Below are positions 1,908-46,540 of a DNA stretch of 47,623 nucleotides, one piece after another. The stretch is from a phage. The notes below the pieces were generated by a model. The model did no database searches. It was not told the DNA's origin and saw nothing but the letters and a program-made list of their open reading frames with translations. The stretch lies in sequence record PZ445468.1. One strand, written 5' to 3'. The first letter of the stretch is position 1, and each line of letters begins with the position of its first letter. A program made the position numbers and the translations under genes.

Positions 1908-1939
1908 TTGACCAATCTACACCGAGCGCATAGTATAAT
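1908..1939 (+). promoter_or_regulatory. sigma70-like promoter TTGACC-17-TAGTAT/TATAAT (rightward)
   Basis: hexamers with 17-bp spacer upstream of 1968 gene; two AATCTAC motif copies inside. Confidence 0.5.
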
Positions 1940-1967
1940 CTACATCAGGTTTATCGGAGATATCACT

Positions 1968-3394: not shown

Positions 3395-5727
<2,333 letters not shown>

Positions 5728-5741
<14 letters not shown>

Positions 5742-5756
5742 GGGCTTTGGTTTATC
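5728..5756 (+). terminator. rho-independent terminator
   Basis: AGCCCTC-taagt-GAGGGCT hairpin plus TTGGTTT. Confidence 0.5.
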
Positions 5757-5824: not shown

Positions 5825-6433
5825 TTAATCATCCAGTTTCACACCGGGAATTTTTCCTGCTGCGATTGCGTCATAAATATGTTTAGCAATGTGCTTGATT
5901 TGCTCCTTATTGTTGCTAATTAACTGACTAGCTTTTCCTATCTCAGAAATAGTCTCATCACGCTTCCTTTCTGATTCTGTGCGGAGTGGGCGGAAATTAT
6001 GCGTGTTTGATTGCAGAGCTACCGGTGTGTTATTGCTCCAACCAAAAACAGCTTTACCATCAACGGCTACGCACTTAAATCTACACCACTCACTTCCGTG
6101 AACCTTGTATTGGTATTCGCACTCACACCCTGCTGGCGGCAGACCTTCTCCGTTCCATGCTGGCTTTTGAGATTCGGCTAGTGCTGCTTTGTATTGCCAA
6201 TAGGTCACTATCGACTCCTTGTGGTCGCAAGATAAAGGTACGGCATTAATTCCATGCCAGTAATACACAAGGCTATTCCCAGTGTGATGTTTCCATGAAA
6301 ATCCATCATAGTGCGGGTCATTTGTGTCCCATACGCACAGCGAACCGTCATTATCTTGAGTAATTGACAGTGCACCATCAGGCCACCCACCACGCTTAGG
6401 CAATTCTTGAACTAACAGGTCGATAAGTTTCAT
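5825..6433 (-). CDS. hypothetical protein (202 aa, W/C/H-rich)
   Basis: long ORF, first gene-sized member of antisense island. Confidence 0.5.
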   Translation of the reverse strand: MKLIDLLVQELPKRGGWPDGALSITQDNDGSLCVWDTNDPHYDGFSWKHHTGNSLVYYWHGINAVPLSCDHKESIVTYWQYKAALAESQKPAWNGEGLPPAGCECEYQYKVHGSEWCRFKCVAVDGKAVFGWSNNTPVALQSNTHNFRPLRTESERKRDETISEIGKASQLISNNKEQIKHIAKHIYDAIAAGKIPGVKLDD

Positions 6434-6654
6434 TTTGTTTCTCCATCAAAAAGGATTTCTTTGTATTCATCACTAACTTCATATGCCTTATTTAGTTCGA
6501 ATACTTCATACGAGTTTTGACCACCTTCTCGCCATGAGAGTTTGTCATTTAGTTTTGCGGCAACAGCGTCGGCTTCATGCTTGTGTGGATAAACAGCAAC
6601 GACATTTGATGAGACGCCGCATTCGATGCAACCAACATTAAATACAAGCCACAT
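6430..6654 (-). CDS. hypothetical protein (74 aa)
   Basis: ORF with 4-nt overlap to downstream gene. Confidence 0.45.
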   Translation of the reverse strand: MWLVFNVGCIECGVSSNVVAVYPHKHEADAVAAKLNDKLSWREGGQNSYEVFELNKAYEVSDEYKEILFDGETK

Positions 6655-6656
6655 AA

Positions 6657-6920
6657 TTATTCCCCCAGCGCCTTATTAACCGCCTCACGCGCATTATCCA
6701 GAGCGCGACGCTTGCTTGATATTGTCCAGACTTTGCCTGAGTGGTCGTCGTAGATTTCAAGTAGCTGCTGGAGTGCGGCGAGCATGGTCTTGTTATTGTC
6801 GTGACGATACCCAACAGAAAACCCAAGCCAAAGCCAGTCCTTTTCTCTATCCGTCATGCAGCCAAAGTCAACAGAATCGAACCATTTGCTAAATAATTTG
6901 TGCACTTCGCGCTGCGTCAT
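6657..6920 (-). CDS. hypothetical protein
   Basis: ORF; ATG start chosen inside track ORF 6657..6932. Confidence 0.45.
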   Translation of the reverse strand: MTQREVHKLFSKWFDSVDFGCMTDREKDWLWLGFSVGYRHDNNKTMLAALQQLLEIYDDHSGKVWTISSKRRALDNAREAVNKALGE

Positions 6921-6928
6921 CGCCAACC

Positions 6929-7069
6929 TCACTTAATATATTCCACAATCTCGCATTCGCGCATCTGCACCAGACCAAATGGCGCGCAGAGTTTGCCGAA
7001 TTTCATAACTTTAATCTGAGACAAATCGAATGCGGCGGTTTGTCCGGTGGTGAATTTTATGATTGCCAT
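6929..7069 (-). CDS. hypothetical protein (46 aa)
   Basis: short ORF read by eye; GGAGATAGAATA-ATG RBS. Confidence 0.3.
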   Translation of the reverse strand: MAIIKFTTGQTAAFDLSQIKVMKFGKLCAPFGLVQMRECEIVEYIK

Positions 7070-7275
7070 TATTCTATCTCCCTAATTGACCAGCCGGTTT
7101 TCTGCCAGTCGTATTCAGATGAGTATCCACACGCCTGAAACCAGTCATCCATGTTGTACCCCATCTCGTCTATGATGGCCCCGCATTGCATCTCGAAAAA
7201 CTCATCACCACAAAACGCCTCATGGACAACTCTACTACCTAGCCGCATTGCCATTACCGCCTCTTCGTATGTCAT
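7069..7275 (-). CDS. hypothetical protein (68 aa)
   Basis: ORF in antisense island. Confidence 0.45.
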   Translation of the reverse strand: MTYEEAVMAMRLGSRVVHEAFCGDEFFEMQCGAIIDEMGYNMDDWFQACGYSSEYDWQKTGWSIREIE

Positions 7276-7337
7276 AAATCACCTCAATTATTTGTGTATC
7301 TGAATGATTAAAGCCGTCATGATGACGGCGGCATGGA

Positions 7338-7466
7338 CTAAATTGCAGTCCAGAGTTTATCAGCCCATGCAAGCATCGCCGACTTAGCCTTACCATCTGG
7401 CGCGTCACGCCATGCCTTGCGGATTACTGCGGCGCGACATTTGTTTTTGAGTGGTTGGTAGGTCAT
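7338..7466 (-). CDS. hypothetical protein (42 aa)
   Basis: short ORF read by eye with AGGA RBS, followed by CCGTCATGATGACGG hairpin. Confidence 0.3.
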   Translation of the reverse strand: MTYQPLKNKCRAAVIRKAWRDAPDGKAKSAMLAWADKLWTAI

Positions 7467-7533
7467 GGTTGTCATCCTCAATTAACATTGCGGAGGTGTT
7501 TCCGCTTGATGTAGATACTATGCATCATCACTC

Positions 7534-7561
7534 AATCTACGTCAACATCATTGTGATAGAA
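7534..7561 (+). promoter_or_regulatory. extended -10 promoter TGTGATAGAAT preceded by AATCTACGTCAAC
   Basis: TGnTAnAAT element 28 nt upstream of endolysin ATG; inverted motif copy at 7506-7516. Confidence 0.45.
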
Positions 7562-7588
7562 TTAATCATTATTTGAACAGGAGGCAGA

Positions 7589-8029
7589 ATGAAACTATCG
7601 CAACGAGGTAAAAATTTCATCAAGTCATTCGAGGGGCTTGAACTACGCGTTTATCCAGACCCAGCAACTGGCGGCGCACCATATACAGCGGGTTACGGTC
7701 ACACTGGCGGTGACATAAAGCCCGGCATGACGGTAACACAAGCAATGGCTGACGCATGGTTTGATAAGGATGTGGAGAAGTTCGAATCCGGCGTATCCGC
7801 GCTACTAACTGCGCCAACAACCCAGCCACAATTTGATGCAATGGTGTCTCTGGCGTACAACATCGGACTAGGTAACTTTGGTAAATCCACACTCCTGAAG
7901 AAGCACAATGCTAAATGCTACCAGTGCGCCGCTGGTCAGTTTCCTTTGTGGAATCGTGCTAATGGCAAGGTTATGAATGGATTAACGCGGAGGCGTAACG
8001 CGGAGCGCGCTATGTATATGGGGCAATGA
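7589..8029 (+). CDS. endolysin (GH24 T4-lysozyme-like)
   Basis: FEGLELRVYPD...GYGHTG motif typical of phage lysozymes. Confidence 0.85.
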   Translation: MKLSQRGKNFIKSFEGLELRVYPDPATGGAPYTAGYGHTGGDIKPGMTVTQAMADAWFDKDVEKFESGVSALLTAPTTQPQFDAMVSLAYNIGLGNFGKSTLLKKHNAKCYQCAAGQFPLWNRANGKVMNGLTRRRNAERAMYMGQ

Positions 8030-10402: not shown

Positions 10403-10447
10403 TTGACCAATCTACATCATTTAGTCAATACTTATTGACGTAGATTG
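10403..10447. promoter_or_regulatory. divergent promoter region with convergent motif pair
   Basis: TTGACCAATCTACATCA ... TTGACGTAGATTG between divergent operons. Confidence 0.4.
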
Positions 10448-19168: not shown

Positions 19169-19214
19169 ACTATAAACGCCGCACTAATCTACGTCAACAG
19201 GAATATGCTAAAAT
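19169..19214. promoter_or_regulatory. divergent promoters
   Basis: leftward TTGACG-17-TATAGT; rightward extended -10 TGCTAAAAT; contains AATCTACGTCAAC. Confidence 0.5.
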
Positions 19215-24848: not shown

Positions 24849-24897
24849 AATCTACATCACCGCCTGGCAGGTGTCAACACCACTGAGATGATATAAT
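24849..24897. promoter_or_regulatory. divergent promoters
   Basis: leftward TTGACA-17-TAGATT; rightward extended -10 TGATATAAT before tail chaperone. Confidence 0.55.
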
Positions 24898-36675: not shown

Positions 36676-36700
36676 TCATCATCACGTAAATGAATCTACA

Positions 36701-37135
36701 TCAATCCACATCAAAAGGCAAGCCAAAATAGAAAAGTGTGGCTTTTTTTAGTTCATCAAGTCCATAAGCGATGGCGGCATAATGACCAAGCCTACACATC
36801 TCTGTTAGCACATCCGATTGCTCCTTGCTCACTCTGCTTTTACTTTTATCGCGGCGCTTTGACTCAATCATTCCGCAACTGTGATTTACACCCGGAGTCA
36901 TTATTACGTTGTCGCCTATTCCAGTCTTAACTCCCATCTTCTGGCGCTTCAGCACAAACTGCACTCTGCTTGATGTGCCAGTTTCGTTTGGTACATGAAA
37001 CCACAGAACATCAGGGAATCGGTGTTGCATCCATGTGCCGTAACCCATCTGGTCAGTCTCCTCTTTAGGACACTCACCACGATAACCGCTATCAAATACC
37101 CATATACCGCTATCAAGCTGCTTCACTTTGCTCAC
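36701..37135 (-). CDS. VRR-NUC domain nuclease
   Basis: 144-aa ORF with D ... E-x-K pattern (GIGDNVI ... GMIESKR). Confidence 0.45.
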   Translation of the reverse strand: MSKVKQLDSGIWVFDSGYRGECPKEETDQMGYGTWMQHRFPDVLWFHVPNETGTSSRVQFVLKRQKMGVKTGIGDNVIMTPGVNHSCGMIESKRRDKSKSRVSKEQSDVLTEMCRLGHYAAIAYGLDELKKATLFYFGLPFDVD

Positions 37136-43516: not shown

Positions 43517-43545
43517 TTGACGTAGAATTACAACTGATGTAGATT
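43517..43545 (+). promoter_or_regulatory. sigma70-like early promoter TTGACG-17-TAGATT
   Basis: hexamers 30 nt upstream of first early ORF; second motif copy overlaps. Confidence 0.5.
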
Positions 43546-44352: not shown

Positions 44353-44846
44353 GTGAAGTTAAGCGAATTGATATCGACCACAAAGGACTTCCATTCACTG
44401 ATAATAATGGGGTTTACGTTTTCTACGAAGACTATGCAGCACTAGAAGCTAAATGCGCTGCGCTGGTGGTGGAGAATGCGGTGCTGAATAAATTTATCGT
44501 ACAGAGTTGCTACGTGTTTGACGGCGAGCAGGGTGAACTATCTGATGCGTATATCTGCGCAATAGATGGAAGGATGCCGCAAACCACAGCCACCGACGCT
44601 TTCTTGGCTGAAGTGAAGACTGAAGCACGCAAGGAGGGAGCTTACTTTGTGGCGAACAGAATGCTGGCTGCCTGGGAAGCTGGTTTTATTGATGATACTG
44701 CAAAGAACGCCGCGGATATTGCCAGGATGATTCTTACCTCTACTGAGTTTATGGCTAATGCGCCGGAAGGCGATTTTGACCGCTCATTCTCTGATGGCGT
44801 TCTCGAAGATATCGCCGCCCAGCTTCGCAAAGGAGGCAACCAGTGA
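44349..44846 (+). CDS. hypothetical protein (165 aa)
   Basis: ORF. Confidence 0.45.
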   Translation: MSEVKRIDIDHKGLPFTDNNGVYVFYEDYAALEAKCAALVVENAVLNKFIVQSCYVFDGEQGELSDAYICAIDGRMPQTTATDAFLAEVKTEARKEGAYFVANRMLAAWEAGFIDDTAKNAADIARMILTSTEFMANAPEGDFDRSFSDGVLEDIAAQLRKGGNQ

Positions 44847-45451
44847 GCGAGATTAATTACCAGGCTCTGCGTGAAGCGGCGGAGAAGGCGACGAAAGGCC
44901 GGTGGGCTGTTGAGTTCGACGATGAGATTTACTCCACTGACGGCGTGAACCATGAGCAAATAGCCATGGTATTCAGTGAAAACGAAGCGCGTGATGCTGC
45001 ATTTATCGCCGCAGCCAACCCCGCCACCGTGCTGGCGCTGCTGGATGAGCTGGAGAAGACGCAGGCGCAATCGTCAAAGTGGTGCGAAGCCTTCCATAAA
45101 GCCGTATCGGTTGGTGCTCGCTATGAAGAGCGCATAGCAGAACTGGAGGGGGACGCATTCAATCCCGCAATTATTGATGTGGTAGCAGAACGCCAGCGGC
45201 AACAGTCGGTTGAAGGATGGACTCCTGAACATGACAACGCATATCAAAATAGCGAATTAGCAGATGCAGCGGCTTGTTACGCAATTCATGCGCACAACCA
45301 AGGTTTCTCCACTCCAGCACATTGGCCGTGGTCTCCTGACTGGTGGAAGCAATCAGGAGCACGCCGCGACTTAGTAAAAGCTGGCGCTCTTATTCTGGCA
45401 GAAATTGAACGTATTGACCGCGCCGCTGGCATTGGCGTGAAGGGGGAGTGA
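44843..45451 (+). CDS. Ead/Ea22-like protein
   Basis: N-terminal ALREAAEKAT ... NPATVLALLDELE pattern. Confidence 0.5.
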   Translation: MSEINYQALREAAEKATKGRWAVEFDDEIYSTDGVNHEQIAMVFSENEARDAAFIAAANPATVLALLDELEKTQAQSSKWCEAFHKAVSVGARYEERIAELEGDAFNPAIIDVVAERQRQQSVEGWTPEHDNAYQNSELADAAACYAIHAHNQGFSTPAHWPWSPDWWKQSGARRDLVKAGALILAEIERIDRAAGIGVKGE

Positions 45452-46447: not shown

Positions 46448-46492
46448 GCACATAACCACCATTGCTTTCACTCATATCATCACCCAACCTTT

Positions 46493-46518
46493 AACCCGCC
46501 TTGTGCGGGTTCTTTTTT
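46493..46518 (+). terminator. rho-independent terminator
   Basis: AACCCGCCTTGTGCGGGTTCTTTTTT. Confidence 0.7.
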
Positions 46519-46540
46519 ATCTACGTCTATGTGTTAAAAT
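46519..46540 (+). promoter_or_regulatory. extended -10 promoter TGTGTTAAAAT preceded by ATCTACGTC
   Basis: TGnTAAAAT 36 nt upstream of 46576 ATG. Confidence 0.45.

Follow-up and report, generated by a model that had tools for sequence, protein, structure and literature searches.

The DNA stretch analysed here (PZ445468.1; the window, at its full length of 47,623 nucleotides (nt)) is a 100% match, rotated by 1048 bases, to the complete genome of Escherichia phage TanjaMuster_Bas81 (PQ850630.1, 47,623 base pairs (bp), circular record). Bas81 is a Skatevirus-like siphovirus which infects E. coli, and Bas77-81 have been grouped in a cluster made up mainly of the genus Skatevirus, small O16-dependent siphoviruses with genomes of 46-48 kilobases (kb) (PMC11990801). 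An initial annotation of the window had reported six minus-strand open reading frames (ORFs) of 42-202 amino acids (aa) between a head-morphogenesis gene and an endolysin gene. This was confirmed, as the six ORFs match the annotated coding sequences Bas81_0014 to Bas81_0019, each labelled “hypothetical protein” and here termed gp14-gp19, which sit between the head-morphogenesis gene Bas81_0013 and the endolysin gene Bas81_0020. We find that gp14-gp19 form one leftward operon, running from a conserved, predicted promoter region (7506-7562) to a terminator (5726-5748). The features of this cassette and its flanks, in window coordinates, are as follows.

5726-5748, both strands: bidirectional intrinsic terminator with a 9-bp stem (5 GC pairs) and T-runs on both sides
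5825-6433, minus strand: gp14 (Bas81_0014), 202 aa, last gene of the operon
6430-6654, minus strand: gp15 (Bas81_0015), 74 aa, a sporadic accessory gene
6657-6932, minus strand: gp16 (Bas81_0016), 91 aa as annotated from GTG 6932, probably 87 aa from ATG 6920
6929-7069, minus strand: gp17 (Bas81_0017), 46 aa, the cassette's most persistent gene
7069-7275, minus strand: gp18 (Bas81_0018), 68 aa, strongly acidic
7311-7330, minus strand: hairpin GCCGUCAU/AUGACGGC, within the 62 nt that separate gp18 from gp19, on the left border of a block shared with phage gmqsjt-1
7338-7481, minus strand: gp19 (Bas81_0019), 47 aa from TTG or 42 aa from ATG 7466, first gene of the operon
7506-7516, plus strand: left arm of an inverted pair, TTGATGTAGAT, a copy of the motif TTGAYGTAGAT overlapping the predicted start of the cassette transcript; invariant in five phages
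7517-7545, minus strand: leftward sigma-70-type promoter candidate (TTGACG, 17 nt, CATAGT); invariant in five phages
7535-7545, minus strand: right arm of the inverted pair, TTGACGTAGAT, a motif copy supplying the predicted -35 hexamer of the leftward promoter; invariant in five phages
7554-7562, plus strand: extended -10 element TGaTAGAAT, as read from the sequence; invariant in five phages

The order of the operon is leftward, with gp19 promoter-proximal and gp14 last. All six ORFs are preceded by a Shine-Dalgarno sequence, four of the five gene junctions overlap or abut in the pattern of translationally coupled genes, and the GC skew goes negative across the cassette at an unremarkable GC content. 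Conserved relatives were furthermore found for each ORF, and on these combined grounds we judge the six ORFs to be more than chance. At the distal end, the terminator originally placed at 5728-5756 proved to be real and bidirectional, with its position refined to 5726-5748. Its fold is much more stable than those of shuffled sequences on the plus strand (z -3.45) and the minus strand (z -3.12, also given as -3.1), and a terminator is annotated at the equivalent place in the phages Skate and ASO78B. It is predicted to close the portal and head-morphogenesis transcript on the plus strand and the cassette transcript on the minus strand. No known RNA was found over the cassette in Rfam, where the weak matches corresponded to the terminator hairpin. 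The second hairpin, between gp19 and gp18, lacks an adequate T-run and is not significant (z -1.95), hence it could be at most a weak attenuator.

Conservation of the cassette was assessed in 29 related loci retrieved through the head-morphogenesis protein, hence independently of cassette content. An earlier set of 28 Skatevirus-like genomes with the same slot had been retrieved by gp14 homology, which makes the gp14 count in that set (28/28) circular. A cassette is present at this position in 28 of the 29 loci, the exception being Salmonella phage Vi II-E1. The gp17 family was likewise detected in 28 of 29 loci and the gp16 family in 24, and the gp14 family is near full-length or partial in 25, with C-terminal remnants in a further three. 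The remaining genes are rare (gp15, 5/29) or absent altogether (gp18 and gp19, 0/29). Clustering located the variable slots at the promoter-proximal end and in the gap between gp16 and gp14. As nearly all loci are occupied by the recurring gp17, gp14 and gp16 families, and Vi II-E1 retains a remnant (see below), the cassette is an ancestral, conserved slot of the whole Skatevirus-like group with turnover of its content, rather than an insertion specific to Bas81. The description of the locus as an antisense “island” is therefore apt for a separate transcription unit but fails in the sense of an insertion.

Turnover at both variable slots can be seen in individual phages. In Bas80, an HNH endonuclease gene, Bas80_0013 (L130 6922-7407, minus strand), lies between the gp14 and gp16 homologues, the slot occupied by gp15 in Bas81. 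At the other end, a block comprising gp19, the control region and the endolysin gene (7278-8029) is 85.7% shared with Salmonella phage gmqsjt-1 (L096 2201-2964), the cassette of which has no gp14 and encodes a 99-aa “regulator protein” instead. This block looks like a module swap spanning the predicted divergent promoter. The Bas81 endolysin is encoded by a single 146-aa gene, a type also found in D10, LPST49, HC6 and Klebsiella phages; most relatives possess two adjacent endolysin genes (279 and 465 nt). Across the genome, 19 Bas81 genes have no tblastn match in Bas77-80, three of them in the cassette (gp15, gp18 and gp19).

The initial annotation had proposed a comparison of presence and absence among relatives, and this comparison points to a dispensable cassette. 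In Vi II-E1 (AM491472), only ~210 nt separate the head-morphogenesis stop codon from the endolysin start (L104 5280-5490), and this residual stretch holds a degenerate terminator and a 13-codon gp15-like remnant (MIMWLVFNAGCSV*). The remnant identifies the locus as a natural deletion of the cassette and not a primitive absence. Engineered deletions are also available, as the genome of the Skatevirus seszw was reduced by iterative CRISPR deletion and the mutant genomes were deposited (Yuan et al., NAR 2022, PMC9825161). The smallest viable mutant, seszw_280S (37,704 bp), lacks Seszw_63 to Seszw_66 and so most of the cassette, including a gp14 homologue (Seszw_64, 40% identity) and a gp16-family gene (Seszw_66); Seszw_67, of the gp17 family, and Seszw_68 were kept. 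Some part of the seszw cassette region is held at ≥99% identity by ~70 records, nearly all of them seszw clones. At this threshold the gp14 homologue was found in 13 phage records and the gp17 homologue in 69, again almost all seszw clones. Since viable seszw mutants have lost them, the gp14 and gp16 homologues are dispensable and non-structural, and both families are dispensable for plaque formation on the laboratory host of seszw. Given Vi II-E1, gp17 is not indispensable in every background either.

The 202-aa protein which had been singled out as rich in tryptophan, cysteine and histidine is gp14; its 202 residues indeed include 8 W, 6 C and 9 H. Its family is large, comprising 2964 clusters at 90% identity in a word-based search and 2999 representatives at 50% identity in a full HMMER search. 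Along the protein there are three invariant segments, namely the N-terminus (residues 1-18), the linker WNGEGLPPxGCECE (93-106) and the C-terminal tail (186-200). The first two enclose a W-rich N-domain, and between the linker and the tail lie a hypervariable SH3/Tudor-like barrel (107-146) and a helical hairpin (158-185), which is variable as well. Among 120 close relatives, residues 1-18, 93-106 and 186-200 were nearly invariant, and the barrel and helical segments fell into 15 and 11 discrete types, respectively. These types were seen in 48 barrel-helix combinations, with 91 sets in which all four pairings of two types occur, a signature of repeated recombination at the conserved junctions of gp14. 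The gp16 family has a comparable design, in which five or more unrelated N-domains are joined to an invariant C-terminal stretch of ~42 residues. Invariant ends around shuffled modules in gp14 and gp16 suggest an exchangeable specificity on a constant scaffold. Longer gp14 homologues (P0128, P0177 and P0189) have two to three tandem N-domains, each opening with “KLIDxLVxELPxxGGWP”, and also extra small “W-x-W-x-GG-x-CPV...IIAYR” domains, none of which is in Pfam. A check of these longer homologues for known fused domains returned none, only the N-domain repeats.

Structure prediction, suggested earlier for the 202-aa protein, gave an SH3/Tudor-like barrel plus helices and no informative match. 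The AlphaFold model (predicted local distance difference test (pLDDT) 74) consists of an N-terminal alpha/beta domain, a five-stranded barrel (104-149), two helices and a short tail, with low confidence for residues 39-72 in the N-domain. Foldseek comparison of this model recovered only generic Tudor/SH3/Sm barrels in the PDB (best E-value (E) 0.017); in BFVD every match was to an uncharacterised phage protein. We also considered metal binding by the W/C/H-rich stretch and rejected it, as the stretch is modelled with low confidence and is not conserved: in a few relatives the W/C/H-rich N-domain has been swapped for unrelated sequence.

Homologues of gp14 have three typical contexts, namely the Skatevirus cassette, an antisense unit in Jedunavirus and, most frequently, temperate phages and prophages. 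In the last of these they belong to the early-left operon, where they lie downstream of the recombination and Ea genes and directly before xis-int, for example in Erwinia phage phiEt88 and in the P22-like phages BTP1 and vB_ST415_1NRH. An integrase or xis gene was found 0.3-1.9 kb downstream of the gp14 homologue in 39 of 57 non-Skatevirus loci. In P22 itself, eaC occupies the slot that gp14 homologues hold in related temperate phages.

None of the six cassette proteins had a match in Pfam, NCBIfam or PADLOC, the last searched at E up to 1. Matches in PHROGs were all to families of unknown function, gp14 matching PHROGs 7798 (E 3e-62), 3483 (7e-18) and 26870 (1e-10), gp16 matching 1273 (2e-4), gp17 matching 21280 (1e-19) and gp18 matching 3474 (9e-24). 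That gp14 spans several PHROGs is owing to the shuffling of its modules. Searches of PDB sequences with single sequences and with profiles gave chance-level hits, none of them informative. Neither library nor fold searches returned a structural match to virion or head-assembly families, and relatives without the genes form infectious particles; lysis families (holin, antiholin, endolysin and spanin) likewise had no match among the cassette proteins. The view that the products resemble neither virion nor lysis proteins was thus upheld across Pfam, NCBIfam, PADLOC, PHROGs and the PDB.

Three specific identities were considered, of which the first was rejected and the other two found no support. 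Profile comparison with hhalign gave probabilities of 1.2% and 0.6% for gp14 as a homologue of P22 EaC and EaD, respectively. For the gp16 family as Ead/Ea22-like, probabilities were 0.2% against EaD and 0.5% against the Ea22-like protein of Bas81, with no PF13935 match in any member, hence the label “Ead protein” given by the depositors of phage ZK22 to a gp16-family gene is unsupported by Pfam or profile comparison. Some gp16-family N-domains carry a motif KGTxGxW ... AASPDLLSALQQLLE reminiscent of Ead/Ea22 proteins; its alignment with the Bas81 Ea22-like protein is not significant. That protein, Bas81_0095 (44843-45451, plus strand; 202 aa, annotated as “hypothetical”), is clearly Ead/Ea22-like by its Pfam match (PF13935, E 6.6e-20) and is missing from Bas77-80. 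The virulent Bas81 thus contains a member of a lambdoid early-region gene family. The third identity concerned gp18, a small protein whose N-terminus follows the pattern “M-x-[YF]-x-EA-x-x-A-[ML]-[RK]-x-G”, presumably typical of Tad2/DUF2829; on these grounds it was considered as an anti-Thoeris sponge. This was not supported, with no DUF2829 match for gp18 or four relatives even at E 10, no PDB sequence match and no Tad2 among the best 50 Foldseek PDB matches (best E 2.2); the gp18 model is only moderate (pLDDT 66.6), which makes the fold comparison with Tad2 correspondingly weak.

The smaller proteins differ in character. gp15 is acidic (isoelectric point 4.7), is absent from Bas77-80 and has a borderline hydrophobic N-terminus. 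Its maximum 19-residue hydropathy, KD(19), is 1.59, compared with 1.74 for the holin and 0.03-0.93 for gp14 and gp16-gp19, which look soluble. The annotated gp16 gene is probably overcalled, its true start being ATG 6920, with GAGG 6 nt upstream, rather than GTG 6932; the seemingly conserved “MRLxM” N-terminus of the gp16 family is then probably the ribosome-binding region overlapping the gp17 stop codon. Relatives of gp17 are confined to contigs of Skatevirus-like size. gp18 has a net charge of about -10 in 68 residues, which recalls small acidic DNA-mimic inhibitors. Its homologues amount to only four clusters plus PHROG 3474, and it is absent from Bas77-80 as well as from all 29 loci. gp19 is a small basic protein, for which ATG 7466 (42 aa), preceded by GAGG 9 nt upstream, is the more likely start. 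An intact gp19 homologue is present in gmqsjt-1 (L096 2261-2404, minus strand), with 47 codons and one residue changed, and is unannotated in the GenBank record.

Upstream of the operon, the 85 bp between 7506 and the start of the endolysin gene hardly vary among Bas81, Skate, Bas78, ASO78B and swi2; the flanking genes differ. The leftward promoter candidate here would start the cassette transcript at about 7510; with TAGATT (7539-7534) as the -10 element, the start would instead be at about 7527. On the other strand, the extended -10 element is likely the rightward promoter of the lysis cassette and so the other half of a divergent control region. In Vi II-E1 both motif arms are changed and the extended -10 before the endolysin is intact, a single case which fits this assignment of leftward and rightward promoters. 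A similar arrangement is found at 19186-19214. The initial annotation had described a promoter region with an inverted motif pair at 7506-7545. Both the pair and a promoter-like site exist; the pair is however not specific to the cassette, since its arms are copies of a genome-wide motif.

This motif, TTGAYGTAGAT, occurs 14 times in Bas81 at ≤1 mismatch against 1.65 expected. Nine copies are intergenic, where intergenic DNA makes up 6.6% of the genome (binomial 4e-8), and 11 of the 14 precede a same-strand start codon by 24-132 nt. Downstream of these 11 copies are, among others, Bas81_0030, the endolysin gene, the lead genes of the other antisense cassettes (Bas81_0005, 0029 and 0069), the units for ParB/RusA (0050) and exonuclease VIII/SSB (0079), and a series of small genes that begins with 0089. 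In phage Skate, 16 copies were counted where 1.86 are expected, at syntenic sites (L092). Motif sites in the window include the following.

1938-1948, minus strand
7506-7516, plus strand
7535-7545, minus strand
10410-10420, minus strand
10435-10445, plus strand
19187-19197, minus strand
24850-24860, minus strand
36694-36714, minus strand, two copies
43517-43544, plus strand, two copies
46519-46529, minus strand

From its positions, TTGAYGTAGAT(T) appears to mark the heads of most non-structural transcription units. The motif joins a -35-like half (TTGAYG) and a -10-like half (TAGATT), and tandem copies 17 nt apart yield TTGACG-N17-TAGATT, a full sigma-70-type promoter. At 24850, TTGACA lies 17 nt upstream of the TAGATT of the motif. 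At 7535 and 19187 the TTGACG half is predicted to act as the -35 for CATAGT or TATAGT, the latter site reading TTGACG-N17-TATAGT. No phage RNA polymerase is annotated in Bas81. In a stretch annotated as intergenic (46460-46530, minus strand), a one-mismatch motif copy precedes a GC-rich hairpin, and then come a Shine-Dalgarno-like sequence and an ATG. The stretch could hold a small minus-strand gene that escaped annotation, or merely the terminator of the preceding plus-strand genes.

With moderate confidence, we interpret the locus as a leftward operon of six small, non-virion, intracellular accessory genes, the Skatevirus counterpart of the non-essential accessory regions known from other phages, such as the “ea” early-left region of P22/lambda-like phages and morons. 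Host RNA polymerase would drive the cassette from a promoter in the divergent control region that also serves the lysis cassette, and the transcript would end at the bidirectional terminator behind the head-morphogenesis gene. The slot itself is fixed and combines the recurring gp17, gp14 and gp16 families with two exchangeable positions, one next to the promoter and the other separating gp16 from gp14. We infer the kind of function, that of intracellular accessory genes; the infected cell is the most likely place of action of the products, which would serve host takeover, counter-defence or competition with other phages, with a role in the particle or in lysis unlikely. The shuffled-module design of gp14 and gp16 would be that expected of binders whose specificity is exchanged in an arms race. 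The shared promoter motif would point to early or middle expression, together with the replication/recombination and other small-gene units. In neighbouring small-gene units, the annotations include restriction alleviation (Lar-like), superinfection immunity (Imm) and a PrrC activator, which fits the host-takeover class and is not evidence for the six cassette genes themselves.

Several observations weigh against this interpretation. The family and PDB searches described above leave the function of the six proteins unassigned, and the evidence for dispensability comes from seszw grown on a single laboratory host rather than from Bas81. The gp17 homologue was lost in almost no seszw record, hence gp17 may matter for growth. 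The -35 reading of the motif works only at some sites; the motif may be an operator for a phage protein instead of, or besides, a promoter element. Lysis genes are usually expressed late and the motif also precedes the lysis cassette, therefore the motif alone cannot define an early class; both the cassette promoter and its expression timing are predictions.

Other explanations account for parts of the evidence. One is that Bas81 alone gained the cassette recently, by horizontal transfer, as a mobile island or moron. This would explain why gp18 and gp19 occur in none of the 29 loci nor in Bas77-80 and why the block of gp19, control region and endolysin is 85.7% shared with gmqsjt-1; the HNH endonuclease insertion in Bas80 also shows that the site accepts insertions. 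We regard this as unlikely, because the slot and its gp17, gp14 and gp16 families are present throughout the group, the sole cassette-free genome keeps a remnant and hence reflects deletion, and the unshared part (gp18 and gp19) amounts to ~0.4 kb of 1.65 kb. Equally improbable, in our view, is that the cassette, above all gp17, regulates the timing or expression of lysis, whether as an antiholin-like protein, as a regulator or through divergent transcription interfering with the lysis promoter. The invariant 85-bp control region common to cassette and lysis genes, the overlap of the two predicted promoters (where binding of RNA polymerase could be mutually exclusive), the presence of gp17 in nearly all natural and engineered genomes and the borderline hydrophobic N-terminus of gp15 would all agree with such a role. 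Vi II-E1, however, is viable with the same lysis cassette and no gp17. Neither gp14 nor any of gp16-gp19 has a membrane-spanning segment, and similarity to holins, antiholins or spanins is lacking; gp14-family genes of temperate phages moreover adjoin xis-int, far from the lysis genes.

That the products are minor head-assembly or virion proteins is highly improbable. The location among packaging and head genes is the argument for it, along with the gp14 homologue of Jedunavirus KpV79, which also adjoins a head-morphogenesis gene. It is contradicted by the opposite orientation of the cassette with its separate terminator and predicted promoter, by the cassette-free Vi II-E1 and the viable seszw mutants without gp14 and gp16 homologues, by the lack of structural-protein matches and by homologues in the early operons of temperate phages. 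A further proposal concerns gp18. Retron-Sen3, which is triggered by RecBCD inhibition, restricts BAS81, and none of Bas77-80 is named among the phages restricted (bioRxiv 10.64898/2026.04.27.721009). A gene unique to Bas81 among its BASEL relatives, most plausibly gp18 with its absence from Bas77-80 and its strong negative charge, could then inhibit RecBCD and so trigger the sensitivity to Retron-Sen3, which the other Skatevirus-like BASEL phages listed do not share. The chance of this is slim: of the 19 Bas81 genes absent from Bas77-80 only three lie in the cassette, gp18 has no detectable similarity to named families and hence none to a known RecBCD inhibitor, and the retron preprint mapped triggers in lambda only. 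We thus treat the link between gp18 and Retron-Sen3 as a weak, testable lead.

A bolder extension of the accessory-operon interpretation, about which we are doubtful, is that the gp14 family constitutes a widespread undescribed class of modular early phage proteins for counter-defence or competition and, separately, that gp18 is a RecBCD-related trigger of Retron-Sen3. The invariant ends of gp14 would carry a constant activity or docking function, with the barrel and helical hairpin swapped to retarget a variable protein of the host or of a rival phage, and gp16, built on the same plan, may work with gp14. The family has no Pfam domain and occurs both in virulent Skatevirus and Jedunavirus phages and beside xis-int in many prophages.

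Small dispensable accessory operons are common in tailed phages, and the cassette is ordinary phage architecture of a known general kind, already annotated, with the exception of one unusually mosaic protein family. What is added here is the evidence from presence/absence and deletion, the mosaic architecture of gp14 and gp16, and the genome-wide motif which explains the inverted pair. In practical terms, the slot offers a naturally tolerated place for cargo in Bas81, a compact BASEL model phage; it has a predicted promoter and a terminator, and is mostly removable in a relative. The large, Pfam-less, module-shuffled gp14 family is a reasonable candidate for counter-defence and host-takeover screens, and TTGAYGTAGAT would provide the first testable map of transcription-unit starts in Skatevirus-like phages.

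Among known systems, the cassette can be compared with the non-essential “ea” genes in the early-left operons of P22/lambda-like temperate phages (P22 eaA to eaI, lambda ea22 and others), which likewise form single-strand series of small, mosaic genes that are dispensable and have no known function. The gp14 homologues of temperate phages occupy that very region, between the recombination genes and xis-int. The Bas81 cassette differs in belonging to a virulent siphovirus, in its position between head and lysis modules with its own terminator and predicted promoter, and in its sequences: gp14 has no detectable similarity to EaC, the occupant of the equivalent slot in P22, or to EaD, and gp16 has no significant similarity to EaD or to the Ea22-like protein of Bas81.

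Morons, a concept reportedly due to Hendrix and colleagues, are autonomous promoter-gene-terminator units between conserved phage genes, typically single genes with a patchy distribution and expression from the prophage. Like a moron, the cassette has its own predicted promoter and terminator, lies antisense between conserved late modules and is not needed for particles. Lytic growth proceeds without the gp14 and gp16 homologues in seszw, and Vi II-E1 lacks the whole unit. Unlike a moron, it comprises three to six genes and has a recurring set in 28 of 29 relatives, patchiness being confined to gp15, gp18 and gp19, and Bas81 has no annotated integrase or repressor.

A further parallel, from a second lineage, is found in the Klebsiella Jedunavirus KpV79, where a gp14 homologue is the last gene of a two-gene antisense unit (genes 05-06) with an annotated promoter and terminator. 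This unit (L087 3540-4624) adjoins the head-morphogenesis gene, a context shared by 5-6 IMG/VR loci. Jedunavirus is however a myovirus lineage, its unit lies between the portal(-side) and head-morphogenesis genes, and the other genes of the unit differ from those of Bas81.

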